From: Ostreococcus lucimarinus
Taxonomy: Eukaryota
Direction: 5' to 3' (one strand)
Assembly (NCBI GenBank): GCA_000092065.1
Contig: CP000594.1
Length of the DNA: 64,000 nucleotides
Each line of letters begins with the position of its first letter. The first letter of the stretch is position 1. Positions 9,731 to 33,499 of this stretch are shown one piece after another. The notes beneath the pieces are model-generated. The model was not told the origin of the DNA. It made no database searches and worked only from the letters and a program-made list of their open reading frames with translations. A program made the position numbers and the translations under genes.

Positions 9731-11800
9731 ATGAGGCACCGATCGTACCGTGTATGCAATGGACGCACGCTCGCACTCATCGCGCTCGTCGTGCTTGTCG
9801 CACGCACGCAGCGCGTCTTCGCTTCGCCGACCGACGAGCGAAGATTCTGGACGCCCACTGTCGTCGCCGTGGACGACGGCGTCGGTTCGAAGATCCGACG
9901 CATGGGAAACGATGTGGAGAAATCGAAGTCTTTCGTGTTTGAGAACACGGTAGCGGAATCGCTGACAAGAGATGGCGTCGTCGCGGTGCGAGTGCGAGGC
10001 TTGAACGAAGCAAAGACACAGAGCGCAAAACTCTTCATGGATTGCGCGCGGGTTACGGATAATGTTGCAGTAGAAGAGTACGACGATGGATCCAGGCGCG
10101 TGACGCTCGCCACGACGACGAAGCAGAGGGGGAGTGGTTTCGGGGAACCCACGTCCAAAGCATGTAAGAAGTTCGAGGTCACGACGAAAATGCTTCGCGC
10201 GAAAGTTTCTGTGGCCGAACAAGCAATCACGGACGTGTTTCAGAGCAAGTTTTCAGATCTGAGTGAATTTGCGAACGGGGTACTGATGCAGGGAGAGAAC
10301 GGCGAGACCTATAAAACTTTCTCGGAAGTATTGAAAGACTGCGAGCACCTTGAACATTTTCACGGCTACACGATTTCACCACAACAAAAATTGAAGAATA
10401 GTAAAGTGCGGACGATCGAAGAGCACACGGATCAAGGTCTACTCATCGCATTCGTCCCGGCCATAATTGTCGATGCAGTGACGGGAAGGCGCGATAAGTT
10501 TTCCTCAACCGGCGATTTTTATATGACGCTTCCTGGGCATCGCAAGGTGCTTCTCCATTTTGACACGCTTCCAGACGATGTCGTTATTTTTATGCTGGGT
10601 CAAGCAATCGAGCAACAAATCACTCCCAAACTTGCAAACGGCCTTGAGCTTCACGCTGTACCACACGCAATGGATATGCCCAATCTTAAATCTAATCAGT
10701 TCAGATTTTGGTATGGGCGAATGTTCCTCCCACCTGAGAATGCCTTGGACGAAAGCCATGGTCTCTCTTTTGGGACAGTGCGCGCTAACATCATCGAAGA
10801 TTTCGCACGTGGGCTGAAGACATCCGTGGGATGTGGTCGTGAGCTCCTCTCCGTGGCAGGGAGCGGTTCATGCGCTAGCAACCAGATATGGTGCTGGATG
10901 CGATGCATGAATCACTCAGCGCCGGCGAGCAATCCACTCACATGCAGGACGGGTCATAGTGTCCAATGTTTGAGCCAAAGACTGGAAGTCTGGACGGATG
11001 CCGACAGTCATGGTGATTATAATCCTGGATGCACCGACGAGACCAACGAGACAAAGCCCGTCACCGATCCACCGACCATCCCAGCTCGAGCAGCCTCTTG
11101 TACAGATGGAAACGCCTGGGAAACTTTTTTGAACCACTCCGAATATGAAAACAGCTTGGAGCTGTTACAAGATAAGTTATATTTACTCTGGACTGTTCAA
11201 AATGGTAAGTTAAAAGCCCGAGTTGCCTTCAATGGCAAGATTGGTTGGTTTGCTCTCGGCATCAAAAACCTAGGAGGGAAACACAACGGGATGAACGGGG
11301 CGAACATCGTCATGGGCGTCCACGACCCTCATCCAATGGGTCACGACAGCAATTTCGGTTCTCCTTATGTTGGAAAGAGCAGTGCGAAACAATACAAAAT
11401 CCACGATCATTCTTCTGCTTTTCGACATTGGAATGACACTGCTGACGTTGCCTCACCCTTCGTGAGTTCGACGACGTTCAATTCATGTTTCAGTTGTATG
11501 CGTTTCGAGACGGCCTCGATACGGGGCGAGGCTCTGAATCTCACCTCTGGTATTAATGAACTCATCTGGGCTGCTCATGATGGCACTTACCTCAAAGGCT
11601 ACCATGAAGTACAAGGATTCGATCGGAGAGATGCACGCGGGCATCTCACGCTTGACCTGACGCGAAATTACGGTCGTGTAACGTGCGGCTTCTCAAGAGG
11701 CTGGGCTGCGGCGAGTCAAACATGTGCTTTTTCGGCAGCAAGCACTCCTTCAGCGATAGTTTCTATATCCATTGCTGTCATTGCAATCCTCGTTATGTGA
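9731..11800 (+). CDS. Secreted/membrane-anchored protein with an N-terminal 2OG-Fe(II)-oxygenase-like domain (HTD…H) and a C-terminal DOMON-like domain, plus a hydrophobic C-terminal tail (GPI/TM-like)
   Basis: ATG confirmed, followed by a signal peptide (LALIALVVLVARTQRVFA). HxD…H: EEHTDQGLLIAFVP … KVLLHFDT. DOMON-like: GKIGWFALGIKNLGG…MNGANIVMG…SAFRHW…ELIWAAHDG. C-terminus IVSISIAVIAILVM. Confidence 0.45.
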   Translation: MRHRSYRVCNGRTLALIALVVLVARTQRVFASPTDERRFWTPTVVAVDDGVGSKIRRMGNDVEKSKSFVFENTVAESLTRDGVVAVRVRGLNEAKTQSAKLFMDCARVTDNVAVEEYDDGSRRVTLATTTKQRGSGFGEPTSKACKKFEVTTKMLRAKVSVAEQAITDVFQSKFSDLSEFANGVLMQGENGETYKTFSEVLKDCEHLEHFHGYTISPQQKLKNSKVRTIEEHTDQGLLIAFVPAIIVDAVTGRRDKFSSTGDFYMTLPGHRKVLLHFDTLPDDVVIFMLGQAIEQQITPKLANGLELHAVPHAMDMPNLKSNQFRFWYGRMFLPPENALDESHGLSFGTVRANIIEDFARGLKTSVGCGRELLSVAGSGSCASNQIWCWMRCMNHSAPASNPLTCRTGHSVQCLSQRLEVWTDADSHGDYNPGCTDETNETKPVTDPPTIPARAASCTDGNAWETFLNHSEYENSLELLQDKLYLLWTVQNGKLKARVAFNGKIGWFALGIKNLGGKHNGMNGANIVMGVHDPHPMGHDSNFGSPYVGKSSAKQYKIHDHSSAFRHWNDTADVASPFVSSTTFNSCFSCMRFETASIRGEALNLTSGINELIWAAHDGTYLKGYHEVQGFDRRDARGHLTLDLTRNYGRVTCGFSRGWAAASQTCAFSAASTPSAIVSISIAVIAILVM

Positions 11801-13013: not shown

Positions 13014-13244
13014 CCGTGGATGTATTAAACTGTGAACGAGGCTAGTCATGGTTCGATTTTTTGGATTACAAGTGTAGGTCTACTTTTACGTTTCGTGGAC
13101 TCCGCTTGAGTCGGCCGATGTCACCACGTCAGGTGTTTCGAGTGCACTAGAGACGTGACCGCCGATACACAGGACGTCGAGCTCGGCGTGCCTGATTTCA
13201 CGACTCGGTGACCATGGTTTGAAACCGAAATGACCATCGGCTTC

Positions 13245-13837: not shown

Positions 13838-14821
13838 TCACGATCGAGTACCGAAGACAAAATTAGCGCACTTTTTTCTATCATCTGCAGAATGCGAGTT
13901 TGGCGCATTTTTTACTGCGTCGCAGTGTTTCTTAGCCGCTTTGCACTGTTTGGAGCAGACATGCGGACATGCTGCCACCCAGGTTGGGTTGGAACATAGA
14001 TGGCGCCTGCCTTCCGGCTTGCCGCAGCCCCGCGGAATCGATTCACAGGGAGCCATGTTGGGTAGATCAGGCGTTTCCCAGACGGTACCAGAGATACCAT
14101 CGAAACCTGGGCACGTGTAATCGTCACTCAGAGTACAGCCAGTCGCCGCCGAGCCTTGACAAGATCTTTTCCAACCACCCAAACGCCTATGGCCCTTTGT
14201 ACGCTTTTGGCAAGTACCCGTCGACACGTTGTACGCTTGTTTAGCTTCCTTAGTATCAAACGAGTGACACACGCATGAATCAATCAGTGGCAAAGCGCGG
14301 ACCTGTACGGCCGGCTCATGCTCGCACGCCCAACACGAGTGTCCTCCAATACTGATCCCGAACCGCTGGCGCATCTCTGACGCGCAGACTTTCGCGCGTT
14401 CCTCCTCGTTGAGCTCCATTCCCGCGCAGGCACAAGCGCACTGTGCACGCGACCACTCCACTCCATCTGTCGCACCAACATAACCTCTCATATCATTCTC
14501 CAGTTGGGCGTGTTGGTCGTGGCATATTCTCGCACACGCCGCGAATGTCTTCATAGATTCTGGTAGTCCGTAGTGCACCGCGGCCTGGGACACCGCGTCG
14601 TCATCCATGAGTTTCCACCCCGTGACCCCCGAGCTCACTGGCCGCCGCCGCCGCCCGAGCTCACTTGACGGTGCATCCAAATCACCGCCCGCATCGCCTG
14701 GGTCCGTCGCCACCGCCGTGAACGGCGCATCCGCGTCAACGCCCGCGGCGACGTTCAGCGCCGCGGCCCCCACGAACAGCGCCAACGTCAAAGGTGACAC
14801 ACATTGCCTTCGAAACCCCAT
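13838..14821 (-). CDS. Secreted Cys-rich protein (~327 aa after signal peptide MGFRRQCVSPLTLALFVGAAALNVAAG)
   Basis: The track ORF starts at TTG 14962. The first ATG at ~14820/14821 is followed by a signal peptide. There are >25 Cys in CxC/CxxC arrays (…QCACACAGMELNEE…SCWACEHE…). Confidence 0.4.
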   Translation of the reverse strand: MGFRRQCVSPLTLALFVGAAALNVAAGVDADAPFTAVATDPGDAGGDLDAPSSELGRRRRPVSSGVTGWKLMDDDAVSQAAVHYGLPESMKTFAACARICHDQHAQLENDMRGYVGATDGVEWSRAQCACACAGMELNEEERAKVCASEMRQRFGISIGGHSCWACEHEPAVQVRALPLIDSCVCHSFDTKEAKQAYNVSTGTCQKRTKGHRRLGGWKRSCQGSAATGCTLSDDYTCPGFDGISGTVWETPDLPNMAPCESIPRGCGKPEGRRHLCSNPTWVAACPHVCSKQCKAAKKHCDAVKNAPNSHSADDRKKCANFVFGTRS

Positions 14822-15111
14822 CCCGCGCGCGCGATCTGCTTTTTCGTCCACGCGGCGTCCACTCGCGAACGCGCGGATACCGTTCGCTCTCTCAGCGCCC
14901 TCCACGTCCGATCGGTTCGGAAGTGACGCGCGCGCGCAGAATAGTTTCGCGTCACAACGCAATTATTCATTCCCGTGTTGATTTTATTCTATTCCAGGGG
15001 GTATGGGTATAGAGTTTACAGTGCCTTCGTACGAGATATTTCCCAACACCCTTTAGTACCAAAACCTAATTGCGTATCTTCCCTCACTTTCCGACGTCAC
15101 GCGCGCACGCG

Positions 15112-18100
15112 ATGACGTCGGCGACGCCGAAACGACGGCGCGCGCGCAGATTTTTGTATGCGTTCGGAGGACCGACACTCTTATTTAACCTCATGCGCGT
15201 GTTTGCCATGTCCGGGCTCGTGGCAACAATTACAATGTCAACAGCCGCGGGCGCCGCCCACGGTGGAGGTGCGAGCATGGACGAGGGACCGGCGCAAATG
15301 CATTATATGCCTGATCGATTTCGCAGCCTCGCGGGCGGCGGCTGGCTTACTATCTCATCGAGAGACGTGCACAAGAGCCTGATGCCCATGCCTGGGATGC
15401 GCGGTGGCGGGGAAGGCGCGAATGAGTCAGCAGTAAGTGGCAGCGCGATGAAGGACGAGGTGAAGATCGATCTGGCCCACGGTGACCCAGACGGTGAGCG
15501 ATCGTGCGATCTCGTGCATTACAAGTCATCCTCGAATGAGTTGGTGTGTTCACCACGTGCGGTGGATTGCTGTTTGGACGGACTCACGGCGCAGGAGCTC
15601 GCCAGCGTAAGCGATGGGTGCCCGTCGGTGAGACCAGAGCTGAACGTCGAGGTCAACGGTCAGCGATTGACGTGGGGCAGCGCTGGTAGAAATGGAAGGG
15701 ACACGCTCACGGACGAAAGTCTCAAAGTGAGCCATGGGCAGACGCCGACGATCGTGGCGGTCGAGCCGGCTGAGGTTCGTCCCGGTGAGTTGATCACGGT
15801 GTACGGACGAACGTGCTTTGGCGATGTTTGGAAGAAAGATGAAGATGATGGTTCGTCTCTACGTGATGATCCCGACGCACTGCGAGATCTATTCTCGGTT
15901 GAAGCGAGCGCAAGAGAGGATCCGCGCCAAGAAATTGGATTGGAAAAGTCTCTCTACAAGGTGCTCATCGGTGACCTACCGTGCGAGGTTCGAGATCCAC
16001 TCACAAACAGGTACTACCGATCCGAGCGCGGCGATGGTCCATACACAGCCCACCGGCAAACAGAGTGTGGACCCGTTAACGGTTGGTTTCAGTGCCGTGT
16101 ACCCCAAGACATCGATTCCGGTCTTCATCTACTTCATTACGAGACGTACACCAGAGGCAATGCTGTGATCCTGTCTGAGGCGCTCAGATGGAATGCATCG
16201 GACGCGTCCAAGGGCTACGTGCTGTCAGTGGTTGATGATAAGTCGGAAGATGAAGATCCACCGCGTGTTTATAACATAACGCAGCTCTCGAAGGATGAGT
16301 CCAAACAGCGACTCCTTGTTGAGGGTGCGTCTCTTGATGCGCCAAATATCGTCGTCGAGCTTGACGGGGAGCGCTGTGGTGGAAAAAAGGTTGTGTCCAG
16401 ATCTGGCATCGAGGTTGAATGCTCAGGTTCAGCTGGAGCGAGCTCGCAGTATCACTACGGCCCCCCCGCGTGGCTGCGTGAAGACTGGGTGTTCAAGGAC
16501 AAGAATAATAAGTTTGTCGGTGGCAAAGCGTGGTCTAACGCTCTCCACGTTTTGAAGCAGCGTGGAGAAAGGTACAACCCTCTCGCCGACGAAGTCATGG
16601 ACGCTTTAAGCTCGGCATTGGCAACGAATGGCATTGTCCGCGGGTACAAGATCGAGAAAGTTCAACAGTATCTCACGAGCCCATCGGTTGGATCACCATA
16701 TGTTGAGGCAACTAGCGGCATGAAAGCGGCGCACGCCGGACTCATCCGTCACCGAAGGATACGGAATGCTGTGTTTGAACGTGTAAGCGGAGTCATCACC
16801 GCCAAAGCAAACGGGCGAATGCGCGTGGCGATCGCCAATGCGGCGGGCAATAACATGGTGCTTCGTGTGCGACATGTTTCCGACAACTTAAATGTATTCA
16901 AACCTTGGTTGTTAGTTTCCAAATTTTGCGGCACCAGATACAGCAGACAAAACATTTATCGATACGGCTTTTCACAGTGGTTCAGTGTTCGTGGTAACGA
17001 AAAATACTATATGGAATTTCTGATGAACTTGGACCCCAGATACTTGCACAATTTCGGGGGATTCGATGTTAAGATGGAATTTTCCTACGACGCGGGTAAT
17101 CCTGCGGGATCAATTGGGCAACTTACGCACACGACAACGCCTCACGTGCCCAAACGAGCGCATGGTGGCGATTACGTCGTGCGCTTTAGCGGCGCTTCGA
17201 AAACTGCGATCAGATTCGCTCATAATGCAACTTCTTCAAGAAGCAATTTTGAGTGGAAACTCTTCAGTGGCGGCAAGACCATCGAGTTCAATACGAAGAA
17301 TTGGTTGCATGCACGCGAACACGTGCGGAAAGTTAGAGACGCTCTGCGATGGGCTAACTGTACCGCGCTGCCTGAAGACTCAAAGATGTGGGACGCGGAC
17401 TCGACCCATTCTTCGCACCCATTCGACGTCGAGAATCGATGGCTCATGGTGCGTGATACGCAGACCTTCAAAGAGCCCACCACAGATTGGAACTTCATAT
17501 GGCAACGTCGCATGGGCGGATTCAGAGGCGCGTCGATCGACTGGAGTACCTCGTACTGTTCGACACACAGTCAAAAATTTGATTTGTCGTCACTACCCCC
17601 AGGAAGAGTCATCACTCCTTCTTCTCATTTCGACGTACCTGCATCTTCTCGTGCGACGACGAATAAGTTTCTGAACTTTGCCTACAAAGTCACTCCGGGT
17701 ACGCGAGCGACCTTGTTACTTCGTCTAAAGTACCGAAGCGGTAATCGGGACATATCGACCACGTGCGCGGTTCTCCTCACCCATGAACAAGCGACTGGGA
17801 ACGTGAAGAACTTCGATCACCCAGCGTGTGTGGACCTTCGAAGCGTCTTCAAGGATGATGGAGAGTGGCACTTTATTTCATTCGATTGGCGAACTGCGTT
17901 GGCCGGTGGTGAGTATGCCCCGAGTTATTTGGGCGAGGCTATGTTCCCGCATAAAGTGCAAGTTCAACTCGATGGTATCGGTGTCGGCGCGCAGAGATTC
18001 CTCGGCAAGTGTCCGAATAAACAGCGCTTAGCGGAAATGTATGTCGGTGATGAAGGAAGTGAACTGCGCGGTTACCTCTGGTTGGATAGCGTTTCTGTGA

Positions 18101-21100
18101 CACAGGAACGCTACTCTCCTCAACGAGTCGAGACGCCCTCTGCACAGCTCGGAGGTATGCAAGAAGGCGTTCACGCAATCACAGATATTGAATATTCGGT
18201 CATCAGCCGAAGCGATGGCTCTAAGTGCAAATCGCTGTCGGACTGTGATATCATCGTGAGCCTGCGTCAGGTGAAGAGATGCATTGATGCGCAGTCGCGA
18301 GGCGATTTCAATATTTCGCCGATGGTGATGTCACAGACGAGTCCAAACCCGCAACCCGCGACGGTCTCGTGTGGTCGTCACTATGCAGCGAACTGCTCGA
18401 CTTGTCCGTGGAAGGTGTCCGCGGAAGGTGTCCGTGGAAGGTGGATGGGCTGGAAATATTGCAATGGTGCGTGCGAATGGAGATGGCACGGGCGTATCAA
18501 TGCAGGTGGCACGTGCGTGTCAAAGCCAGCTCCAACTCCTCCGGCAATAACAGTCACGGATCGTACTTCTTCAACACGTGGAACCGTCACTGCACAGATC
18601 ACAGGGGGGACGATGACGCAATTTTCCACCTCTGCCAATTCATCTGAAGTGCAGGACGCATTACGTCATGTCCTCGGAGCGCACGACGGAGGCTTCGTGG
18701 TGAGTCCAAGCATGGATTTGTTTGATGCGTGCGGTGTGAGCGCTCATCGCATGCGCGTTGCGCATGCGAGCGATCTCGAATCGATCCAAGCGCGGTACAA
18801 AGAAGTCGTCAATGGTGTGCCCCTGGGAATGCTACCGAAATCTTCCCGAGGCCGCACTGCGGAAAATGACGCAGGTCTCCTTAATATAACTGTGAATGTC
18901 TCAGGCGGCCTCGCTGAGATAGTCGCGACAGACGAGTCGAGCGATTTCATCGGTATGGTGCCCCTGGACACGAGAACAGATCTCGATGTGCGCGCCTTGA
19001 TTCGCGGTGGCGACGCCGTGTTGGCGACGGCTGTTGTGACGGATGGCGACACAGTCGTACCATGTTCTGTCTCACCTGACCGTATGTCTGCGACTGGCTT
19101 CAAACAAGTTCCGAACGGGCAGGCATTCGTTGGCGATGCTTCTTGCCACATCATTGTGCCACACGAGGAAGTTGCATCTGACGCGACCGTGCACGCTCCG
19201 ACGGAGTTGAATCAGGATGGTTTTCCCTCACTCGGTGAGTCCGTGAGTCAATCGAGTCCGACAGACCAGAAACGTCGACGGGACGTCGAAACTATCCGTC
19301 GGCGCAGCATGTCAAACTCGCTAAAATTTCCTGGCCATGATACCTGGGCAAAACGAGATCTATCGATGAGTAGATCCGATCTTGGACGATTAACAGTCAC
19401 AGTGGTTGGTTTTGGTGCGCGTGTGCACAACGGCGCCGCGCACCGTAGAGCTGCGAATCACGCGCGGAAACTGTTGAAAACGGAACTCGTCGCGAAGGAT
19501 GCAGGTCAGGGGAGTCTCAACAATACGAAAAGCAAGTATGAATTTCCGGCGGGCGCGGGTCGATTCAGTGATCCATCGACGTGGGGTCCTCGGGGAGTGC
19601 CGGACCAAAACTCGACGGATATGCTCTTTATTCCTGCCGGTTTCAATCTTACTCTGGATGTCGCCGATACGTACTTCCGCGTGTGGGTGATTGAGGGGCA
19701 CCTAAATTTCCAACGGGGCATGAACATCACGATGCAAGCAGAAATGATCGTCATCAACGGCGACGACGCACACTTTAGCATTGGGAGTGAAACACGTCCC
19801 TTTGAAGATCAGGCGAATATCATCATGCACGGTCACTGGCGATCCCTCGGCTTGCCCAAATATGGGGTGAAGTGCATCTCACTGACGAGCGGACGATTAA
19901 CATTCTATGGTCAGCACGTCACGCCTTGGATGGAACTGGCCACTACGGCTTCAGCTAACGCAAACGTTATTTCCGTCAGAAGCAAGGAAGGCAAGACTCC
20001 AGATCTCGCCGGATGGAAACCGGGTGCGAGTATTGTGGTGACGTCAACCTCTTACGGGGACAGGAGATGTCGGCAAAACCGTACAGACGACTGTCAACCC
20101 GAGGAGCGCGTTATTGAATCTGTCACTCCTAGAGGCAACTTTGCGGACATAACTCTCGATCGACCGTTGAAGTATGAACATTTGGGTGAATCCGTGAATG
20201 TGGCGGGAAGCCCCCGCGGGGCTACGATTGAGCGTCGTGCTGAAGTAATGCTTCTCACGAGAAATATCAACGTGCGCGGCACGACTGAACACAATGGGTA
20301 TAAGCTCGTCGGCTTTGGCGCGCACACTATGATGATGTCTGGTCAAATGGTGTTGAAAAATGTTGAATTCGGCCCAAACGTCGGACAGGCCTTCCAACTG
20401 GGTCGGTATGCCATCCACTACCACACGCCCAATGAAAAGATGTTCAAATATGGTTTGACAGCCTCAAATGACCCGAGGATGCAGGGCGCAGACCAGCGCT
20501 TGAGTCGTGTGGAGGGAGTCTCGGTCCACCAATCAAACAACCGTGCGATCGCGGTGCATGGTTGTTATCGACTGAACATCATTAACAACGTCGCGTACAA
20601 CATCTTGGGACATGGGATGTTCGTTGAAGATGGTGTGGAAATGTGGAACCTCTTCAAGGACAACGTTGTTTCTCTAGTGCATCGCTCTTTCTCTCTTTTG
20701 AACACTGATCAAACACCTGCAGCGTTTTGGATATCGAACGCTAACAATTTCTTCATCGGTAATCGAGTGTCATCGAGTAATCATCATGGATATTGGTTTG
20801 ACCCACCAGGAGGACCTACCGGACCGTCGTCGCGAACGCTCACGGGGCCTTTGGAAATCCAAAAATTAAGCACTCGGAAGGTACCGCTCGGCCAGTTTGA
20901 AAATAACAGAGCCCACTCGAATGGCCACTCCGGACTTTGGATTGATCAAATAAACACGGTCTTGCAGCAAGGCGGCAGGCTCAGAATGTACATGGTCGGT
21001 ACCCACGTATGGAACAATGGAATCAACGGTTTCGGAATGATTACCGGCGTTGGGCATCTACAGATTGTGAATACGTTTGCCATGGGCAACGGGATTGACA

Positions 21101-24100
21101 TCATGTATATCAAGTCGACTGGTGCGACGTGGGCGATGCCGACGAATGGTTGGTCCGGTAACTTGGTGTACAACGCCACCCTTCGCGGTGACCCGAAACG
21201 CAATACCCAGGCAATCGGCTGTCCGCACGGCGGATGGGTAACATTTAACGATATCCTCATTAGTGGCTATCAAAGTAGGTTGCCCCCAATACACCACTGC
21301 GCTGTGTGTCCGGGTTTCAAAGGCGGCATGGAAGTTCGTTTCATGAATATGAAATTCGTCGACAGTGATACAAGGCGGCTCCGCGGTGGTTCAACATCTC
21401 GACCGCGCGTATTCTGGAACGGGTACAACTCCAACCTTTTGCTCGACGTGGATGGGACCCTGAGTGGATCGCCAGGTCCACGATGGGCGCATTCAGTCAA
21501 GGGCGCCAGTGATGATCCCAGGAACCGGCCGACGGGTCATTTTCCGCCAGAACACTGCACCCTCAATGATCACATCGGAGGTGTTGTTTGCGACGCCAAC
21601 ACTGTGTCGTTGCGAGAGGTGCAGTGGCGCCGTATCAAGCCCATGACCCTTATACCCATGGCGATGCAGACAGCACCTGATCAAAATGCAGGGCAAGTGA
21701 ACTTTTATCATTACGACCATATCGAGCGACGTTTCAATTGGCGTACGACATTGGTTATGGTTAAAAGTCCGAACGCGAAGCCATACATCCATAACTTTAC
21801 GTTTAAGTTTAAAACATGGCAAATTGATGACCCGGACGCTTGGTACATGGAGGTCCGTGAGCTTCAGCCCAATGAATGGGCTATAATGCGATTCCCCACA
21901 CTCCGCAATCCGTGGCGTTGGAACTTGAATTCAAGAATACCGACGGTCACATTGAATAACTACAATCAAAGTGATTATAGTTTCAATGAGAGCAAGGCCA
22001 TCACCACCACGAGCAACGAATGGCTGAGTTGGAAAAATCACAAGTTCGGCGACCACACATACCTACCCGTTGTGGAGACAAGGGATGTTAATGTAAAGCC
22101 AGATCCAGGGCTGCTCGATATCATGATATCTGGCAAGCGCGAACAAGGATGGACACAATCGTACGCCCTCGGTGCCAACTATGATGGCGCGCGTGAAGAT
22201 ATGCCCGTCTGCACCACTTCATGCGGAAGCTCGGCAAAGTCAACATGTGGCATGAAACGCTACAACTGCAGACCGGGCGACAAGAAACGATGTTTGCCGA
22301 TGGAAAAGCCTGCAAACTGCTTCGACAATCGACCTATACCCGAGGTAGATCCCGAGCCTAAAACTTTTTCCTGGTGCGACTCAAACGAAGTTTGGTCTCC
22401 GCCGGCATTCGGGGATGACGTCATGATCAAGGCTGGTTGGACGGTCATCTTAGATGAAACCTGTCTGGTGACCAACATAACTAGACACGTGGATTTATAT
22501 GGGTCCCTGTTGCTTCGTGATCCAGGCGCTGGTAAAACCATCAAGTTCCGAGCGCAGACCATCCACGTCGCGGCTGGGATTGGATACCTCGAAGCTGGTG
22601 ACCAGGATGATCCGATATCGAATGGCGACGTTCGTATCGAGCTTTATGGGAACAGATTTTCTAACGCTCGAATGGGCTACGGTATGGAGACAAAGTACAT
22701 CGCCGTTCTCGGACACCTCAGCCTCGTCGGAAAGGCGAGCGTGGAGCAAACGTGGTCGACGCTTAGAAGCGATGCGCCCGCGGGAAGCAGTACAATTGAA
22801 ACGACAGCCTGTGGCGGTTGGAATACTGGCGACACGCTCATGATTGGTGGCGCTATGCACAATTGGACCGGGATCAAGCATGCTTGGTTTTTGAGCGCGG
22901 AGCGCTGTGATATTTCCTCCATAGCAGTTGCGAGCGAAGGTTGCGTCATACGGTGTACTTCCAGCTTCAACTACACGCACTCAGGCCCGGCCCAAAAGCA
23001 CGAGGTCAGTTTTGGTGGAATGCCAGTGACTCTCATGCATAGGCGCTCTCCAGGTGGGCGCGTGCAGGTAGTTGGCATGGAAGACAAAAACAAGGCACTG
23101 GCAGAGCAGCACTATGGTGCTGTTATTACTATCCTGAAACCGAAAAAGAAAGGCTATGACGCAAAATTGGCTAAGAGATTCAAGATAGAACTCAAGACGC
23201 CCGAGCGCATGCAAGCGGCAACTGAAAGCATGAAACATGATCCCCCGCCTGAATGCCACCGCAGACAAGGTTCGGCTGTGATCGTCAATGTCAACTTTGC
23301 GCATTGCGGTCAGCGGCACTCTAGTCGCGCGTGTGTTTCTTTTGCCGCCGGTATTGGCGCTGAGTATCGAGCTACGTTCGCAGAAACGACATCGATGGCA
23401 CTCGTTGCGAACAACACATTTGCGGACGCCTACAATTTTGCCGTGAGCGCAGCAGGAGATGGAATTATTATAGAGAATAACGCCATCGCACAAACCTATC
23501 ACGGTGGATTCGAGGTCTCTGGTGCGAACAACACAATGTCTAATAACGCAGCTGTTCGATTATTCGACGATGTTAGTGATTACTTTCACGACATTGGGTC
23601 GGTTGGTTTCAAGTTGTCGGGATCAGGGAAATGGTATACTAACGTCGTCGCCTCCGTGCAGTACACTGGGTTTAAAATTCCTGGATATCCGTGCGAAATG
23701 ATGACTCCAGACGTGGAGGATGAGGGTTTAGACGTTCGCGCTGTGACCACCGTTCCCGCCGAACCTACAATGCGTGACCTTCGCGCGTATGGTGGCATGG
23801 TAGGCGTGAATCTGCGGGGCGGGCGTACTCGGATGGTCACACGTGAACCGGTGGAGGCCTACGCGCCGCTCGAGTGTCGCCAATGGAGCGACTTCGAGAT
23901 TCGTTCAATGGTTTGGTACGGCGTAACCACGTTTGGTCAGGGAAAAACGTCTATTGTGTTGAAAAACTTTAATATTTGGGACACCGGACTTGGTTTCGCG
24001 CTGTGGATGGTCAACGGTGGCTCAGCCGCAGGTTCGAGCAGCGAGCGAGGGCATTTCGCAGAAATCAGTGACACGACGATAATCGGTTCTGCAAGTCGAT

Positions 24101-26946
24101 GTAGAAACGACGGCATTGGGTTTCCCGCGTTTTACTTAACGGCAGAACCGTACCGGCCGGATCAAGGAGTGAAAACGCCATCGCGCTTTGGTGGAACGAC
24201 GCTAAGAAACATAAGGTTTCGCGATTTCGGCGCATGTGAAAAGAAAGGCGTTCGTCAAGTTCGTCAAAAGAATTACGCATTGGTGAACGCCATGAACCGT
24301 GGGCGATACGCGTGGGTTTACTACGACAACGCGAACCCCGTGCGATCTTCTGGCTTGAGCTTTAAGGGTGTACCATTCGAAAACAGGTTACTCATGATCC
24401 ATCCAAGCTGGGGTCGAATAGGCAATGGGAAATGGGGCTGTGCCCAAATGTACTGCGACGGACATCGCAACACGTTTGTGATGGATGAGGACGGTTCGCT
24501 GCTCGGTGATAACGCCGCATTCGGGACCATCTTGCCCGAAAACGAGATTGGTTGGTTCAAGAAACTGGCCTATATCGATCCGCTCAGCCGTGACATTCTT
24601 GAAGATTTGGTTCCATTCACACACCAGTGGCTGCCCAACGGTACCAAACTGACGCCCATGCGAGGGAAGCTCTACGACGAGCCAGGCCATCTCAAAATGG
24701 GCTGTCGAAAGGAGGCTTCATGGCAGGCGTGGCTCTGTCCCGAACACAGGCACAGGCAAATAATCCACGAAAGTTTGGACGGCGATCACACGAAGAGGCG
24801 CATCTCCCCAACTTCTGTTCTCACAGAGCTACCATCTCAGAGCAAGCGTTTCATGTCTCTGTACACTGGGCCTGCGAAATACGGAGGAAACTGGGCAGGT
24901 AAAATAACCAGACATAACACACTCTGGATTACCGGCCATGTCGGCGCGACGCACACGATCCACCACTCGAGCACGAATCCATCCATTTCGCGCGTAACAT
25001 TTGCCGATGCCACGGAGGATGAGGCCGTGCATGTCAAGCTTTATTACGGCGTACCAAATCGTGTCGACGTTTACGTCGATGGAAGGTACGTCCCACCGCT
25101 TGCGAACATCACTTGGGATCAGCCGGACGTTCCTGATATCAGTAGCTCGGGCAGTCTTGAGACTATGCCACACGGCGCGAACTTTTACAATCGTCTGAAC
25201 GGTTATCTCGAATTCGTGCTGAGAGGCCCTAAAGAAGTGCAAATTCGCGTCTCGAACATCGTCGTACTCAGCGCTACCGTCACAGTCACCGAGGACACAT
25301 TCTTCGTGCCGGGAATAAAAGCACTGGTGAACAACATTCGTCTCTTGCTTAACATTCCGGAGGAACGAATCGCAGTCGCGGGAGTTGGCGATTTCAAGCT
25401 AGCGAAACAAATCGCAAAAACTGAAGCATCCTCCCTTGGGTCATCTGGAGACAGTACTGAGCACGTCATCGAATTGCTCATAGAGGAGGCAACTACAACA
25501 CAGCTCAGTTCGAGCGAGGAAGACGTCGAAGACGTAGATCCGGTCGCAGAGGCAAACGCGTACTCGAACTCTAGTTCTGAGCTTACTTCGCTGGCTCGGC
25601 GTGTGCAGCAAAACGCTAAAAATTTGACGTTGGGAACTGCTCTGGGGTTGGCAAATTCAACATTACCAGTTGAAAAGTCACCTATTGACATGGTGGCGGG
25701 CTGGACGTGTGAAACCAGAATGTATAACGATGGCACTTGCGATTGTGATTGTGGCGCGTGGGATCCTGATTGTGACGGTGGGCAGACTATCTTGCGAGGC
25801 TGCCCATCGCACGCGGAGATCAACAGCACCGGTACCCCATTTGAATTCGCAAATAGTGTACGGGCATACTGCGTTAACAATTCAGACGTCGTGACGTGTA
25901 GTTTAGCAGTGCCTCCTGATGACCTCTGCAACGAGTGGCCATGCCTGGATAGTGATCCGTCTGATGTTCTCGTCTCTTACTTACAACGGGCCTCTAGTAA
26001 TGAGTTAAAATGCGTCAAGCGGCAGAGTTCGCCACATGCAATGCATACGGGAGAGTGTGCTTTAAGCATGTTGGACGAGCGTGGCGACACCCTTGAACCG
26101 ATTCTGAGCTGGAACTCCACAGATTTGCCTGCTTCACCACAACCACAAACGTCATCTTCGGTACCGTCTTCACCGCGTCCGGATGTCCCCGCACCAGTAC
26201 CGTCTTCATCGCGTCCGGATGTACCCGCACCAGTACCGTCTTCGCTGCGTCCAGATGTACCCGCACCGGTACCGTCTTCGCCGCGTCCGGATGTACCCGC
26301 ACCGGTACCGTCTTCGCCGCGTCCGGATGTACCCGCACCGGTACCGTCTTCGCCGCGTCCGGATGCTCCGCATCGAGGCCCCTCACGAGAGTCAGCACAA
26401 GCGCGACGAGACCGCCGTCGTGACGACCGCGCGCGTCAAAGACGAAGCATTAGAAGGCTTCAAAGACAAATCGCTAGAAGATTTTCTGTCTCACAGGAAG
26501 ACTTGAGAAATGCGACAACATTGAGCTCGATTGTTGAGCTTGCGCAGGCTGAGGTGCAAGAAGCCCAACGCTCCGTACCAACACTACAGACGAAATATGA
26601 GTCGGCGAAGGCTCTGTACAAAGGGAACAGAACTACTACAAATAAAGCGGCGCGCCGCCAGGCAAAGATAAATTTGCGCGTTGGAAGAAAACAACTGAGG
26701 CGCGCGAACAAGAAGCTTGAATTACTTGAAGAACTCAGCAGGGCACTCACCACACCGGAACAAGGCGGCGCTTTTGCCCTTGGTATCGGTAACCCACGCG
26801 GACGAGAAAATTCGATGCTCGTCGTCGCTGTCGCGATGGGCGCGTGCGCCATGGCCTCCCTCGCCGTGCGATCTCACCGCAGAGCGAACAAACGACTTTA
26901 CGTGGATGAATCCACGGCACTCTTGAGGAATCGTAGGCGTTTTTGA
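15112..26946 (+). CDS. Giant (~3,944 aa) intron-less type-I membrane protein with a fibrocystin/PKHD1L1/CEMIP/TMEM2-like architecture. It has an N-terminal signal-anchor, two G8 domains, parallel beta-helix (PbH1) repeats, (PSSPRPDVPAPV)x6 Pro-rich repeats, a basic coiled-coil, a C-terminal TM and a short tail.
   Basis: The track ORF starts at TTG 15070 and the first ATG is at 15112 (MTSATPKRRRARRFLYAFGGPTLLFNL…). G8-1: WGPRGVPDQNSTDMLFIPAGFNLTLDVADTYFRVWVIEGHLNFQRG…IVINGDDAHFSIGSETRPFEDQANIIMHG (DNA ~19.58 kb). G8-2: WSPPAFGDDVMIKAGWTVILDETCLVTNITRHVDLYGSLLLRD…VRIELYG (DNA ~22.39 kb). Beta-helix: NNVAYNILGHGMFVEDGVEMWNLFKDNVV. TM MLVVAVAMGACAMASLAV near the C-terminus. The ORF is uninterrupted for 11.9 kb. 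Confidence 0.7.
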   Translation: MTSATPKRRRARRFLYAFGGPTLLFNLMRVFAMSGLVATITMSTAAGAAHGGGASMDEGPAQMHYMPDRFRSLAGGGWLTISSRDVHKSLMPMPGMRGGGEGANESAVSGSAMKDEVKIDLAHGDPDGERSCDLVHYKSSSNELVCSPRAVDCCLDGLTAQELASVSDGCPSVRPELNVEVNGQRLTWGSAGRNGRDTLTDESLKVSHGQTPTIVAVEPAEVRPGELITVYGRTCFGDVWKKDEDDGSSLRDDPDALRDLFSVEASAREDPRQEIGLEKSLYKVLIGDLPCEVRDPLTNRYYRSERGDGPYTAHRQTECGPVNGWFQCRVPQDIDSGLHLLHYETYTRGNAVILSEALRWNASDASKGYVLSVVDDKSEDEDPPRVYNITQLSKDESKQRLLVEGASLDAPNIVVELDGERCGGKKVVSRSGIEVECSGSAGASSQYHYGPPAWLREDWVFKDKNNKFVGGKAWSNALHVLKQRGERYNPLADEVMDALSSALATNGIVRGYKIEKVQQYLTSPSVGSPYVEATSGMKAAHAGLIRHRRIRNAVFERVSGVITAKANGRMRVAIANAAGNNMVLRVRHVSDNLNVFKPWLLVSKFCGTRYSRQNIYRYGFSQWFSVRGNEKYYMEFLMNLDPRYLHNFGGFDVKMEFSYDAGNPAGSIGQLTHTTTPHVPKRAHGGDYVVRFSGASKTAIRFAHNATSSRSNFEWKLFSGGKTIEFNTKNWLHAREHVRKVRDALRWANCTALPEDSKMWDADSTHSSHPFDVENRWLMVRDTQTFKEPTTDWNFIWQRRMGGFRGASIDWSTSYCSTHSQKFDLSSLPPGRVITPSSHFDVPASSRATTNKFLNFAYKVTPGTRATLLLRLKYRSGNRDISTTCAVLLTHEQATGNVKNFDHPACVDLRSVFKDDGEWHFISFDWRTALAGGEYAPSYLGEAMFPHKVQVQLDGIGVGAQRFLGKCPNKQRLAEMYVGDEGSELRGYLWLDSVSVTQERYSPQRVETPSAQLGGMQEGVHAITDIEYSVISRSDGSKCKSLSDCDIIVSLRQVKRCIDAQSRGDFNISPMVMSQTSPNPQPATVSCGRHYAANCSTCPWKVSAEGVRGRWMGWKYCNGACEWRWHGRINAGGTCVSKPAPTPPAITVTDRTSSTRGTVTAQITGGTMTQFSTSANSSEVQDALRHVLGAHDGGFVVSPSMDLFDACGVSAHRMRVAHASDLESIQARYKEVVNGVPLGMLPKSSRGRTAENDAGLLNITVNVSGGLAEIVATDESSDFIGMVPLDTRTDLDVRALIRGGDAVLATAVVTDGDTVVPCSVSPDRMSATGFKQVPNGQAFVGDASCHIIVPHEEVASDATVHAPTELNQDGFPSLGESVSQSSPTDQKRRRDVETIRRRSMSNSLKFPGHDTWAKRDLSMSRSDLGRLTVTVVGFGARVHNGAAHRRAANHARKLLKTELVAKDAGQGSLNNTKSKYEFPAGAGRFSDPSTWGPRGVPDQNSTDMLFIPAGFNLTLDVADTYFRVWVIEGHLNFQRGMNITMQAEMIVINGDDAHFSIGSETRPFEDQANIIMHGHWRSLGLPKYGVKCISLTSGRLTFYGQHVTPWMELATTASANANVISVRSKEGKTPDLAGWKPGASIVVTSTSYGDRRCRQNRTDDCQPEERVIESVTPRGNFADITLDRPLKYEHLGESVNVAGSPRGATIERRAEVMLLTRNINVRGTTEHNGYKLVGFGAHTMMMSGQMVLKNVEFGPNVGQAFQLGRYAIHYHTPNEKMFKYGLTASNDPRMQGADQRLSRVEGVSVHQSNNRAIAVHGCYRLNIINNVAYNILGHGMFVEDGVEMWNLFKDNVVSLVHRSFSLLNTDQTPAAFWISNANNFFIGNRVSSSNHHGYWFDPPGGPTGPSSRTLTGPLEIQKLSTRKVPLGQFENNRAHSNGHSGLWIDQINTVLQQGGRLRMYMVGTHVWNNGINGFGMITGVGHLQIVNTFAMGNGIDIMYIKSTGATWAMPTNGWSGNLVYNATLRGDPKRNTQAIGCPHGGWVTFNDILISGYQSRLPPIHHCAVCPGFKGGMEVRFMNMKFVDSDTRRLRGGSTSRPRVFWNGYNSNLLLDVDGTLSGSPGPRWAHSVKGASDDPRNRPTGHFPPEHCTLNDHIGGVVCDANTVSLREVQWRRIKPMTLIPMAMQTAPDQNAGQVNFYHYDHIERRFNWRTTLVMVKSPNAKPYIHNFTFKFKTWQIDDPDAWYMEVRELQPNEWAIMRFPTLRNPWRWNLNSRIPTVTLNNYNQSDYSFNESKAITTTSNEWLSWKNHKFGDHTYLPVVETRDVNVKPDPGLLDIMISGKREQGWTQSYALGANYDGAREDMPVCTTSCGSSAKSTCGMKRYNCRPGDKKRCLPMEKPANCFDNRPIPEVDPEPKTFSWCDSNEVWSPPAFGDDVMIKAGWTVILDETCLVTNITRHVDLYGSLLLRDPGAGKTIKFRAQTIHVAAGIGYLEAGDQDDPISNGDVRIELYGNRFSNARMGYGMETKYIAVLGHLSLVGKASVEQTWSTLRSDAPAGSSTIETTACGGWNTGDTLMIGGAMHNWTGIKHAWFLSAERCDISSIAVASEGCVIRCTSSFNYTHSGPAQKHEVSFGGMPVTLMHRRSPGGRVQVVGMEDKNKALAEQHYGAVITILKPKKKGYDAKLAKRFKIELKTPERMQAATESMKHDPPPECHRRQGSAVIVNVNFAHCGQRHSSRACVSFAAGIGAEYRATFAETTSMALVANNTFADAYNFAVSAAGDGIIIENNAIAQTYHGGFEVSGANNTMSNNAAVRLFDDVSDYFHDIGSVGFKLSGSGKWYTNVVASVQYTGFKIPGYPCEMMTPDVEDEGLDVRAVTTVPAEPTMRDLRAYGGMVGVNLRGGRTRMVTREPVEAYAPLECRQWSDFEIRSMVWYGVTTFGQGKTSIVLKNFNIWDTGLGFALWMVNGGSAAGSSSERGHFAEISDTTIIGSASRCRNDGIGFPAFYLTAEPYRPDQGVKTPSRFGGTTLRNIRFRDFGACEKKGVRQVRQKNYALVNAMNRGRYAWVYYDNANPVRSSGLSFKGVPFENRLLMIHPSWGRIGNGKWGCAQMYCDGHRNTFVMDEDGSLLGDNAAFGTILPENEIGWFKKLAYIDPLSRDILEDLVPFTHQWLPNGTKLTPMRGKLYDEPGHLKMGCRKEASWQAWLCPEHRHRQIIHESLDGDHTKRRISPTSVLTELPSQSKRFMSLYTGPAKYGGNWAGKITRHNTLWITGHVGATHTIHHSSTNPSISRVTFADATEDEAVHVKLYYGVPNRVDVYVDGRYVPPLANITWDQPDVPDISSSGSLETMPHGANFYNRLNGYLEFVLRGPKEVQIRVSNIVVLSATVTVTEDTFFVPGIKALVNNIRLLLNIPEERIAVAGVGDFKLAKQIAKTEASSLGSSGDSTEHVIELLIEEATTTQLSSSEEDVEDVDPVAEANAYSNSSSELTSLARRVQQNAKNLTLGTALGLANSTLPVEKSPIDMVAGWTCETRMYNDGTCDCDCGAWDPDCDGGQTILRGCPSHAEINSTGTPFEFANSVRAYCVNNSDVVTCSLAVPPDDLCNEWPCLDSDPSDVLVSYLQRASSNELKCVKRQSSPHAMHTGECALSMLDERGDTLEPILSWNSTDLPASPQPQTSSSVPSSPRPDVPAPVPSSSRPDVPAPVPSSLRPDVPAPVPSSPRPDVPAPVPSSPRPDVPAPVPSSPRPDAPHRGPSRESAQARRDRRRDDRARQRRSIRRLQRQIARRFSVSQEDLRNATTLSSIVELAQAEVQEAQRSVPTLQTKYESAKALYKGNRTTTNKAARRQAKINLRVGRKQLRRANKKLELLEELSRALTTPEQGGAFALGIGNPRGRENSMLVVAVAMGACAMASLAVRSHRRANKRLYVDESTALLRNRRRF
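26150..26350 (+). repeat. 60-bp x ~3.5 near-perfect tandem coding repeat (PSSPRPDVPAPV units) inside the G8 giant gene
   Basis: Repeated gtaccgtcttcgccgcgtccggatgtacccgcaccg… units read directly. Antisense ORFs 26015..26398 and 26183..26506 are repeat artefacts. Confidence 0.8.
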
Positions 26947-27234
26947 ACAGTACAATTTTGTCATACCTACAGTCGCAAGCAAAAACGCCACATTCAAATT
27001 TGGGCGTCCCGCTTAAGATTTCGGTACCCTCGCTTAAGATTTCTTCAGAATGGAATCTCTGAACGCAAGGCGTGAAATCACTTAGCCATCCTGCCCGAGT
27101 CTGACGAAAGTAGCAAAGTAGCACTTTTTGCACGCCTCCCAAAGGTGGCCCCTGGGGAAATTATTTATTTTGTGGAGTGGTGAAAAATAAAAATTCCCAC
27201 TGGATACCTTCTGGGACACTGCTTTTTTGCTACT

Positions 27235-27530
27235 TTTGCTACTTTTTCGACGAGATCGGGGTACTGCAAAGCACACGGCGAAGACGGGTGGCCGATGATC
27301 CGTGTGCGCGTGTCGCCTTTGATGGGTCGCTCCCGTTCATGACTCAAGAGTTGTCGCGCGACCTCGCGCGTGCACGAGGGTGCCACGTTTTAGGTACCAG
27401 AGGTGCCCATTTCTTCGTGGTAAGATGGTCCCTCGTGTATCACGCCGCTCCCCTTTAAGCATGAAAAGTTGTGTCCAATATATTGCGCGCGATGTCCGAT
27501 GGTACATCATACAATATCATAGTTAAGCCA
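27235..27530 (-). repeat. Inverted fragment (~300 bp) of the 5'/promoter region of the primase-helicase element, with no ORF attached
   Basis: The reverse complement of 27240-27530 aligns to 33660-33955 (upstream of primase copy A). 27235-27290 also matches 50500-50560. Confidence 0.7.
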
Positions 27531-27544
27531 CACTTATCATACGA

Positions 27545-27700
27545 CGGTGGCGGTCCACCTGTCGGTCGTCACAGAAAAGTTGCGTCTGAGACTGAGGATG
27601 TGTGTTGCTCATGTGTCTTATATATACCTCATACATACATATATTAACATTTACAACGATATGTATGGGGTGCCCAGCCCATCCGCGCGGCGTGGCTTCT
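27545..27700. repeat. ~160-bp repeat, second copy at 28450-28620. Both end in the ggtgcccagcccatccgcgcgg motif. 27665-27875 additionally forms an inverted-repeat pair (gggtgcccagcc … ggctgggcaccc) around 170 bp of AT-rich DNA. A 46-bp x2 tandem lies at 28030-28120.
   Basis: Direct comparison. Confidence 0.65.
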
Positions 27701-32026: not shown

Positions 32027-33499
32027 ATGGTAGCCGACGATCGACAGCGAAATCGCGCGCTCGGACGGCGTCGTGCGACGGCAATACGCTTAGCCTTTAG
32101 TGCGCTCATGTTCACGTGCGCGGCGAACTCGCTGGTGTGGCTTCAGGGATTGACGTCGAGCGCGGGTGCTACCGAACGCGAAGTGTCATCACGCGCGCGA
32201 CGTCGAGATGCGGAGACGTGTAAAGTCGATGCGCCGACGAGGCTGGCTGAACGTACGGCGCGTGATAGACTTTTCGGGTACAGACGACGAGACGTAGGCG
32301 CGCTCGCGGCGTTGCGAGGCGATGGTGTGACGCTCTCAACGTCGACGACGCGCTGGCGCGATCTCCAATATGGAGACGCACTGGATCGGTACGGGTTCTT
32401 TGTTACGTCTGAACCGGTTTTAAGCGAGAAAGAGGCGGACAAGACGCGGGCGCACCTGCTCAGTCTGTTGCGAAGTACGGATGTGTACGAGCAAAACGAT
32501 GGGTGTCTCGGCGAACTTGCGGACTGTCAGGAGAGATTTGATTTGTCTCTTCGACTCACAACGACTGTGACACGCGCGGTGAATAAGATTGTGTCCACAC
32601 TTAAGCCCGCACTGGTGGATATATTCGGCGATGAAGACTGTGAACTCGTAGAACTGAGTGCGTTGATCACATGTAAAGGCTCACCCACGCAAGGCATCCA
32701 CAGTGATGCGGAAGGGGTGAAAGGAGACGATCGACTTGTCAGCGTGTTCGTATCATTACAAGACACCCCCACGAATCTTGGTCCAACGCACGTTTTCTTT
32801 AACTCACCGAATGCTGTAACAGAGTTTGACTACTATTCCGCACTCATGCTGATGAGGATTGTGGCGGCCGAGCTCAAGAACTCGACGGTTGCGTTAAGAG
32901 ATCATGGTCTTGGTGATATTTATATCAAGCAAGGCGTCGCAGCCATCCCAGAAAACGAGGTTGCGACAGAAGAAGAACTAAAATTCTTCAATGCGCACTG
33001 TAGAGTCGATGAGAGGGATAATACACTGGCATTCTATCCCCCTTGGGAGTCCTCCCCAAACGCCCGTCTCGTGTTTGGCGTCGTCGCTGCTACGCGACAG
33101 GGAGCCGCTCTCGTGTATGACTCGCGGACTCAACACAGAGGTGGAGCTAACACAGTAGGAGCGCGAGTACAACTTATGTTTAGTTTTCAGACGAAGCGTG
33201 CTTTTGTGGCTGGGTCGACATTCACAATGCGACGTAGGTATCATCGCATTGAACGCATGCCACTGACCCTCATGGAGAGAGCGACTCTGACATCATTTGG
33301 GCATGAATACGAGAAAAGCAAGTCGAACCTTGCGTGGTACCTGCGAGTATTCGGAAAGATACGCCTTCGAGACTTCCCATTACGAGCTGACACCACTGAT
33401 CAGGAACGTGAATGGGTGAATGCTGACTTAGTGCAAAACTCTGAAAACAAGTCGGACTTTGATGTCGATAGGATGGGGTTACAAGGTGGAGTGTTGTGA
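32027..33499 (+). CDS. Membrane-anchored phytanoyl-CoA-dioxygenase (PhyH)-like 2OG-Fe(II) oxygenase
   Basis: ATG confirmed. TM AIRLAFSALMFTCAANSLVWL. HxD: GIHSDAEG. Distal H/R: LVYDSRTQHRGGANTVGARVQLMFSF. Confidence 0.45.
   Translation: MVADDRQRNRALGRRRATAIRLAFSALMFTCAANSLVWLQGLTSSAGATEREVSSRARRRDAETCKVDAPTRLAERTARDRLFGYRRRDVGALAALRGDGVTLSTSTTRWRDLQYGDALDRYGFFVTSEPVLSEKEADKTRAHLLSLLRSTDVYEQNDGCLGELADCQERFDLSLRLTTTVTRAVNKIVSTLKPALVDIFGDEDCELVELSALITCKGSPTQGIHSDAEGVKGDDRLVSVFVSLQDTPTNLGPTHVFFNSPNAVTEFDYYSALMLMRIVAAELKNSTVALRDHGLGDIYIKQGVAAIPENEVATEEELKFFNAHCRVDERDNTLAFYPPWESSPNARLVFGVVAATRQGAALVYDSRTQHRGGANTVGARVQLMFSFQTKRAFVAGSTFTMRRRYHRIERMPLTLMERATLTSFGHEYEKSKSNLAWYLRVFGKIRLRDFPLRADTTDQEREWVNADLVQNSENKSDFDVDRMGLQGGVL

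Follow-up and report, generated by a model that had tools for sequence, protein, structure and literature searches.

The stretch of Ostreococcus lucimarinus DNA analysed here, a 64-kb window of contig CP000594.1 (64,000 nucleotides), contains a single reading frame on the + strand that runs uninterrupted from 15070 to 26946 and comprises 3,958 codons when counted from a TTG in the open reading frame (ORF) listing of the window. From the first ATG, the coding sequence at 15112..26946 (stop codon included) specifies a protein of 3,944 amino acids (aa), referred to below as the giant. An alternative ATG at 15193, which is the start picked by metagenome gene callers, would give a protein of 3,917 aa, and the metagenome gene calls for this ORF span 3,869–3,917 aa. 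At a GC content of about 53%, a chance origin of an 11.8-kb stop-free frame can be excluded. A previous interpretation, made from the letters of the DNA and a list of ORFs (the sequence-only reading), had described the locus as a single-exon algal gene for a giant protein of the fibrocystin/CEMIP type. The frame is indeed one of 3,944 codons that is open in every contig inspected, and the algal host is borne out by the neighbouring proteins: the products of ORFs 5910-7706 (-), 9731-11800 and 32027-33499, together with a 636-aa version of 29874-31805, are identical or near-identical to proteins of O. lucimarinus CCE9901.

Modules of the giant protein

The two G8 domains and the beta-helix claimed in the sequence-only reading were recovered by a Pfam scan, which matched G8 twice, CEMIP_beta-hel once and, more weakly, Beta_helix. 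All features of the giant described here lie on the + strand. G8 domain 1 (aa 1490-1610; 19579..19941) matches PF10162 over its full length (1-124/124, E 4.6e-25, 88.4 bits) and G8 domain 2 (aa 2429-2551; 22396..22764) matches the same family with an E-value of 1.6e-19 and 70.4 bits, both scores lying above the Pfam gathering cutoff of 22.9 bits. Some 120 aa separate the first G8 domain from a CEMIP-type right-handed beta-helix (aa 1734-1942; 20311..20937) that is matched by PF24606 in its entirety (1-212/212, E 9.5e-46, 156.6 bits). The second is followed by the start of a further beta-helix (aa 2758-2814; 23383..23553) with a weak PbH1/Beta_helix match to PF13229, which scored 39.2 bits with the whole protein and 20.8 bits with the piece alone, the latter being below the cutoff of 25.9. 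The module order is G8-PbH1-G8-PbH1, a tandem duplication within one chain. The sole solved structure with a sequence match was the TMEM2 ectodomain (8c6i; query aa 1606-1948, E 9.5e-25).

Hydropathy analysis of the whole giant (Kyte-Doolittle) confined strongly hydrophobic 19-mers to two places. The first, at aa 22-45 (15175..15246), follows a KRRRARR stretch and could be a signal peptide or a signal anchor. The second, at aa 3900-3921 (26809..26874; maximum 2.18), coincides with the C-terminal transmembrane helix proposed previously. Beyond it lies a basic, putatively cytoplasmic tail of 23 aa (26875..26943) with an acidic di-leucine-type motif, DESTALL, at 26884-26904. The helix is preceded by a basic juxtamembrane segment rich in Arg, Lys and Gln (approximately aa 3756-3895; 26377..26796), near-identical in the two metagenome relatives L030 and L031 described below, which by eye has coiled-coil character. 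Upstream of this segment is the Pro-rich tandem repeat, (PSSPRPDVPAPV)x6, for which Tandem Repeats Finder reported 5.8 copies of a 36-bp unit with 94% matches at 26159..26365, in agreement with the six copies counted before.

Outside these modules the protein has few recognizable features. No PDB match was obtained with aa 51-1450, no IPT/TIG domain was found at E ≤ 1 in any piece scanned with Pfam, and there was no Pfam match in the giant to GG/lectin-type, PA14 or SEA domains. A segment at aa 386-440 (16267..16431) does align with the IPT/TIG match of a homologue, P0122. The best-conserved region of the protein is that after beta-helix 2 (aa 3051-3655; 24262..26076), where identity to P0122 is 49-54% compared with 38% elsewhere; no known domain was recognized there by Pfam, and a PDB search with aa 3001-3683 was also empty. 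This region includes a cysteine motif, GWTC..Y.DG.CDCDCG..DPDC (aa 3531-3554; 25702..25773), that is kept in P0122, L030 and L031. A Lin-12/Notch (LNR)-like reading of its CDCDCG..DPDC part was considered on the basis of a resemblance by eye and set aside, as it had no Pfam support.

Relatives and natural variants

P0122, from a EukProt proteome, is a protein of 4,370 aa that is collinear with the giant and shares 38% identity with it over 3,176 aa (38% across aa 132-3050 and 49% across aa 3051-3655). G8 and the CEMIP beta-helix are each matched in two stretches of it, and TIG is matched once (367-416, 25.1 bits); the TIG match aligns to aa 381-440 of the giant. Another collinear relative, protein P0156, is encoded on a 68%-GC Tara contig (L018) and combines TIG, two G8 domains and a CEMIP beta-helix. 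The architecture is retained in full by collinear homologues that share 38% and about 33% identity with the giant. When homologues were searched for with a 1,200-aa segment, most of the top matches combined TIG, G8 and CEMIP beta-helix; the best named match was a crab fibrocystin-L-like protein (175 bits), and TMEM2/CEMIP2 scored 88 bits. This search missed known near-identical metagenome proteins, so absences from its list are uninformative. In a comparison of individual modules, module 1 of the giant matched both modules of the crab fibrocystin-L-like protein P0078 (202 and 52 bits), the first of which was also matched by module 2 (47 bits). With aa 201-1400, an exhaustive HMMER search gave only 26 matches among 1.84 billion representative proteins, mostly fragments of close relatives, and the N-terminal part of 1,450 aa appears from these searches to be almost an orphan that is specific to the lineage. 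We describe the giant as a G8/CEMIP-beta-helix protein with fibrocystin-L-like architecture, a description that stops short of orthology to animal fibrocystins.

In nine independent marine metagenome contigs the giant ORF is present at 99.85-99.98% nucleotide identity with local synteny kept, the order being a 689-aa gene (+), a 355-aa gene (-), the giant (+), a 210-aa gene (-), a 602/643-aa gene (+), a 490-aa gene (+) and Prim-Pol. Compared with the giant of the window, one of the wild copies (L009) shows 10 synonymous and four non-synonymous differences plus a 3-bp in-frame insertion. A more distant relative from the metagenome scan, L030, has 93% aa identity to the giant, and the ratio of non-synonymous to synonymous substitution rates (dN/dS) between the two is 0.27 (Nei-Gojobori, 1,375 codons). 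The ratio is 0.06-0.17 over beta-helix 2 and the first part of the aa 3051-3655 region and climbs to 0.5-0.57 in the last 450 codons. Every indel in the giant is in frame in the metagenome contigs examined. The lengths called for the protein (3,917, 3,893 and 3,869 aa) point to variation in repeat number, and in one contig (L007) a 72-bp in-frame deletion within the Pro-rich repeat was seen directly, while L030 and L031 have about three repeat copies each. The copy number of the Pro-rich repeat is thus polymorphic in nature, and the giant is under purifying selection. We conclude that 15112-26946 is one functional, intron-less and selectively constrained gene of O. lucimarinus. The near-identical metagenome copies, the low dN/dS, the in-frame indels and the collinear homologues all speak for a real gene and against a split one or a relic.

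A model for the giant at the cell surface

We favour, with moderate confidence, a model in which the giant, about 3,900 residues long, crosses the membrane once as a type I surface glycoprotein, is built on a duplicated fibrocystin-L/CEMIP unit and serves as a coat, adhesion or glycan-handling component. The N-terminal signal sequence would route the chain into the secretory pathway, and the C-terminal helix would fix it in the plasma membrane, with the 23-aa cytosolic tail presenting a di-leucine-type sorting motif. The ectodomain would comprise the lineage-specific N-terminal part of 1,450 aa, the two G8/beta-helix modules and the conserved C-terminal part of 600 aa, and would be kept off the membrane by the basic helical segment and by the Pro-rich stalk, which is presumably extended, probably O-glycosylated and variable in length. 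For the beta-helix modules we propose binding, and perhaps cleavage, of polysaccharide or glycoprotein outside the cell, and by analogy the giant would act on the wall-less cell as PKHD1L1 does in the stereocilia coat. We infer topology, glycosylation, ligand and cellular role alike. Ostreococcus is a naked cell, and the scales that the sequence-only reading had named as a possible location are inapplicable. The neighbouring oxygenase genes, discussed below, are superfluous to the model.

A detail that bears on sorting comes from a 643-aa membrane protein encoded 3 kb downstream (29874-31805), the tail of which contains DESTPLL (31758-31778). Since the tails of both proteins carry DEST(A/P)LL, a common di-leucine-type sorting signal is suggested by their sequences. 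The 643-aa protein (+) has an N-terminal anchor, an Ala/Glu/Lys-rich low-complexity helix of about 130 aa, a Cys-containing domain and a C-terminal transmembrane segment; its length is 602 aa in the metagenome versions and 636 aa in the reference model. DESTPL also occurs near the N-terminus of a 284-aa ORF at 35416-36270 (-).

Fibrocystin-L (PKHD1L1) and fibrocystin (PKHD1) resemble the giant in being type I proteins of about 4,000 aa with a signal and a long N-terminal part, in the order G8-PbH1-G8-PbH1, and in having a single transmembrane helix near the C-terminus and a short tail. In human FPC the G8 domains lie at 1932-2053 and 2740-2873 and the transmembrane helix at 3859-3881, and the tail of FPC-L is 9 aa (PMC13424714). 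PKHD1L1 is assigned to the stereocilia coat (PMC6707252). The giant differs from the fibrocystins in that no TIG array was detected, with one TIG each in the homologues P0122 and P0156, and in that its transmembrane helix is preceded by the basic helical segment and the Pro-rich repeat. The fibrocystin/CEMIP-like reading made earlier is largely upheld; the IPT/TIG array, a defining feature of fibrocystins, is what the giant lacks. To our knowledge Ostreococcus has no cilia, and a ciliary role of the giant is excluded on this ground. The sequence-only reading had noted that this architecture is best known from animals; putative fibrocystin-L orthologues have been said to range “from green algae to vertebrates”, with fibrocystin-L probably the ancestral member (PMC13424714), so its algal occurrence is not new.

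CEMIP (KIAA1199/HYBID) and TMEM2 (CEMIP2) share with the giant a G8 domain followed by a CEMIP-type beta-helix, but they have a single such unit with inserted GG/lectin-like domains in about 1,400 aa, whereas the giant has two units, no GG match and a C-terminal anchor. TMEM2 is a type II membrane protein. Its G8 domain is part of a continuous beta-helix of a kind typical for polysaccharide-degrading enzymes (PMC10206443). The G8 plus CEMIP beta-helix unit is also shared with bacterial proteins of about 650-1,100 aa, for example from Gammaproteobacteria and Gemmataceae. In P0089 and P0103, which are of this kind, the identity was 25-30% in an alignment that took in about 40% of the 1,200-aa query. 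The bacterial proteins have a single module and lack the N-terminal, post-helix, stalk and anchor parts of the giant. Like the hydroxyproline-rich glycoproteins of green algae and plants, the giant has a short Pro/Ser-rich tandem unit with SP, AP and VP dipeptides, but in the giant this repeat accounts for only about 72 of 3,944 residues and there are no Ser-Pro(3-5) extensin blocks.

Several points weigh against the proposed model. The exact giant protein, from either ATG, is absent from the protein collection, although its reference-annotated neighbours are present, and the fragmentary matches examined for expression evidence all trace to ENA metagenome assemblies. About 2,000 aa of the protein (the N-terminal 1,450 and aa 3051-3655) are without a known domain, and the main function could sit there. 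‘Glycan processing’ is a weak part of the proposal, and Ostreococcus is not known to produce hyaluronan. The purified TMEM2 ectodomain was without hyaluronidase activity and no active site could be assigned (PMC10206443). Since the family has no defined active site and the pure TMEM2 ectodomain is inactive, glycan binding is, by analogy, a safer assumption than cleavage. As regards the protein collection, the three + strand genes flanking the giant have the consecutive accessions ABO99582, ABO99583 and ABO99584; as these run on without a break and the exact protein is unmatched, the giant may be missing from, or modelled differently in, the reference protein set, accession order not being proof of position.

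The rearranged locus

The giant is situated in an island of low GC content, subject to rearrangement, that carries giant adhesin-like genes; this stretch begins near 9.6 kb and extends at least as far as 64 kb. GC content at third codon positions (GC3) is 0.53-0.69 there, compared with 0.73-0.83 for the core ORFs to its left, namely poly(A) polymerase (PAP), RRS1 and others. Pfam analysis of two further giant ORFs in this stretch identified eight DUF285/PARCEL stretches, TSP1 and a weak PAN match in a protein of 3,829 aa with a C-terminal transmembrane segment (52438-63930, -), and 13 DUF285 stretches in one of 2,240 aa (37875-44597, +), which also has internal 75-bp-periodic repeats. A Prim-Pol/P4-type primase-helicase was recognized by domain search at 48183-50393 (-). 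A second Prim-Pol ORF (34065-35345) is a truncated copy of it, the two lying in a 1.2-kb inverted repeat (33900-35095 / 49363-50558, 97% identical). Just downstream of the giant, a 166-aa ORF (28645-29145, -) matches zf-CCHC (28.5 bits) and, below threshold, GIY-YIG (20.5 bits), a pairing that hints at a mobile-element gene. The DUF285 block is flanked by direct repeats, each about 1 kb long and 94-97% identical (36516-37474 / 47194-48142), and an element of about 0.5 kb occurs inverted at two places with about 90% identity (12558-13090 / 46488-47019). Two PARCEL/DUF285 ORFs have been reported on chromosome 14 of O. lucimarinus (PMC2996958); because the window holds two DUF285 giants, it is likely to lie on that chromosome.

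Gene order in the window differs from that of the wild contigs. In all wild contigs that span the region (L001-L004, L008-L015), the block 37825-46897, with the 2,240-aa DUF285 gene and a 630-aa ORF, is inverted and placed between 9617 and 9610, so that it separates the poly(A) polymerase side from the 689-aa gene; its site in the window is 28 kb further right. The eight bases 9610-9617 are found on both sides of the block in wild contigs and could be a target-site duplication or a mere alignment overlap. Beyond 36469 the wild contigs run into cobW and other metabolic genes. One 15.7-kb contig (L005) matches window 29384-36469 at 99% identity, but the G8 giant is missing from its upstream part (L005 1-3400, set against window 13378-29384), and in another metagenome contig the Prim-Pol gene is followed by one for a 1,606-aa SRCR/He_PIG protein. 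These two contigs may reflect strain presence/absence and cargo variation, or chimeric assembly. In L031 (3,139 bp, compared with window 24176-27299), the last 690 ectodomain residues are only 55-62% identical at the aa level, with synonymous sites saturated, whereas from the Pro-rich repeat through the transmembrane helix, the stop codon and a further 350 bp downstream there is 97% nucleotide identity to the window. As single contigs that could be assembly chimeras at repeats, L005 and L031 are leads and not findings.

One explanation for the state of this locus gives the giant the main role of a variable surface determinant (receptor, decoy or shield) in host-virus or cell-cell interaction, carried as cargo of a rearranging island of giant adhesin-like genes that differ between strains in content and alleles, with glycan binding secondary. 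We consider this possible but rather unlikely. The low GC3, the two other giants with their DUF285/PARCEL, TSP1 and PAN domains, the primase-helicase with its truncated copy, the zf-CCHC/GIY-YIG-like ORF and the altered gene order would all fit a mobile setting, and PARCEL genes have been described as horizontally mobile (PMC2996958). Variation in the giant itself could be read in the same way, given the polymorphic repeat number, the dN/dS of 0.5-0.57 in the C-terminal 450 codons, the mosaic structure of L031, the lack of the giant in L005 and the contig with an SRCR/He_PIG giant instead. However, the giant is nearly unchanged in eight of the ten contigs found by means of the 689-aa gene, the other two ending before the site, and such near-constancy is unlike a rapidly diversifying antigen. 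Both L005 and L031 are single short contigs with break points at repeats, where assemblies form chimeras. A scan of viral contigs found no homologue of the G8 module and, for the primase-helicase, one distant match of 26%, which is too little to call the island viral; the link to viruses is without experimental basis.

A bolder form of this idea, which we put forward as speculative and think unlikely, is that an ordinary chromosome carries a strain-variable ‘surface-giant island’, with the giant as one of its cassettes. Giants of the G8/beta-helix, PARCEL/DUF285, TSP1/PAN and SRCR types would be gained, lost, moved and recombined there, and divergent ectodomains would be swapped onto a shared stalk-anchor at the Pro-rich repeat, thereby varying the surface of the naked cell under pressure from viruses or grazers. 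If true, the island would be the equivalent of antigen-variation loci outside the known hypervariable outlier chromosome.

Two side observations concern the left part of the window. Poly(A) polymerase (5910-7706, -) and the 689-aa protein have two GenBank and two RefSeq accessions each in O. lucimarinus, and poly(A) polymerase occurs with two downstream contexts in metagenome contigs (the RRS1 side in L001, L002 and L004, and a Zip transporter side in L003); together these suggest a segmental duplication in the genome. Positions 1-2000 have 72% GC, compared with 47-62% elsewhere; long ORFs overlap there on the two strands, which such a composition would lead one to expect.

Flanking oxygenase-like genes

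The sequence-only reading had placed two membrane-anchored 2-oxoglutarate (2OG)-Fe(II) oxygenases near the giant and suggested, as pure inference, that they could supply prolyl-hydroxylase-like activity. Both are real ORFs with hydrophobic anchors. The upstream neighbour (9731..11800, +; 689 aa) begins with a signal peptide, has a hydrophobic C-terminal tail and would be secreted or anchored. No oxygenase domain was found in it by Pfam, NCBIfam or PDB sequence and profile searches, including no Pfam match to P4Hc/2OG-FeII_Oxy_3, but in its AlphaFold (AF2) model a 2OG-Fe(II) oxygenase fold is followed by a Cys-rich linker, a DOMON-like beta-sandwich and the hydrophobic tail. This model is of moderate confidence, its predicted local distance difference test (pLDDT) score being 63 for the whole protein and 70-90 within the two domains, and the C-terminal half also has a weak DOMON-like Pfam match. 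Foldseek aligned the model to PDB entries 9eis, 6ku3 and 5mof at E-values of about 1e-10 (best 6e-11) and a probability of 1.0, the fold matches including ethylene-forming enzyme (EFE), GA2ox3 and DAO1 with TM (target) scores of 0.5-0.63, as well as halogenase types. The residues H232-x-D234, H312 and R325 are invariant in an alignment of 15 sequences that includes a Pyramimonas homologue; homologues at 31-40% identity are found in Pyramimonas, in other eukaryote proteomes and in metagenomes. No prolyl 4-hydroxylase was among the 50 fold matches listed. As modelled, the protein is a 2OG-Fe(II) oxygenase fold of the plant 2OG-dependent dioxygenase (2-ODD)/ethylene-forming class and not of the prolyl-hydroxylase class, contrary to the activity proposed for it.

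The downstream neighbour (32027..33499, +; 490 aa) is an N-terminally anchored orphan with an HxD...H...R motif (alignment A1), and H225-x-D227, H370 and R380 are invariant among the 10 sequences of its family. Its model has a pLDDT of 43 and there was no Pfam or PDB match; no relative was detectable beyond close Ostreococcus-like sequences, and a search of the PDB with the family profile was empty. The oxygenase fold first ascribed to both neighbours is thus confirmed for the upstream protein and unproven for this one.

Perhaps the giant and these two flanking genes form a functional unit in which prolines of the Pro-rich repeat are hydroxylated in the secretory pathway, priming O-glycosylation, but we regard this as very improbable. 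It would draw on the 2OG fold of the 689-aa protein, its HxD...H...R residues invariant in 15 homologues, signal peptide and hydrophobic tail, on the conserved residues and N-terminal anchor of the 490-aa family, and on the order 689aa-355aa-giant-210aa-602/643aa-490aa that is repeated in wild contigs of O. lucimarinus. With more than 99.8% identity among those contigs, the shared order is uninformative on whether linkage is selected. In species further removed, the counterparts of the 689-aa gene (L019) and of the 490-aa gene (L020-L024) are surrounded by housekeeping genes, and within 10 kb of them there is no G8 giant; apart from proximity in one species, the functional link is unsupported. 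In addition, the fold matches of the 689-aa protein point to 2-ODD, ethylene-forming enzyme and halogenase, with prolyl 4-hydroxylase missing from the 50 listed, and the 490-aa protein has neither relatives outside Ostreococcus-like sequences nor a usable model. Irrespective of the giant, the 689-aa family is a putative 2OG-oxygenase-DOMON fusion that is not recovered by Pfam, and an extracellular 2OG oxygenase with DOMON would be unusual.

Finally, we find it hardly credible that the giant ORF is a relic that is never expressed, or foreign DNA of recent arrival, and that it does nothing in the alga. Its atypical composition, the mobile-element-type genes nearby and the missing record of the exact protein might suggest this, but the 11.8-kb frame is open in every contig examined with all indels in frame, dN/dS is well below 1, and the full architecture survives in collinear homologues with identities of 38% and about 33%.

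Concluding remarks

The rearranging island of giant surface-protein genes around the giant may bear on strain differences in virus susceptibility. The giant itself offers a clean, intron-less and experimentally tractable instance of the fibrocystin-L/CEMIP module in a unicell that has neither wall nor cilium and a genome of 13 Mb. What this module does biochemically is unsettled in animals, and the ligands of the two G8/beta-helix units in Ostreococcus would bear on an ancestral, non-ciliary role of the family.

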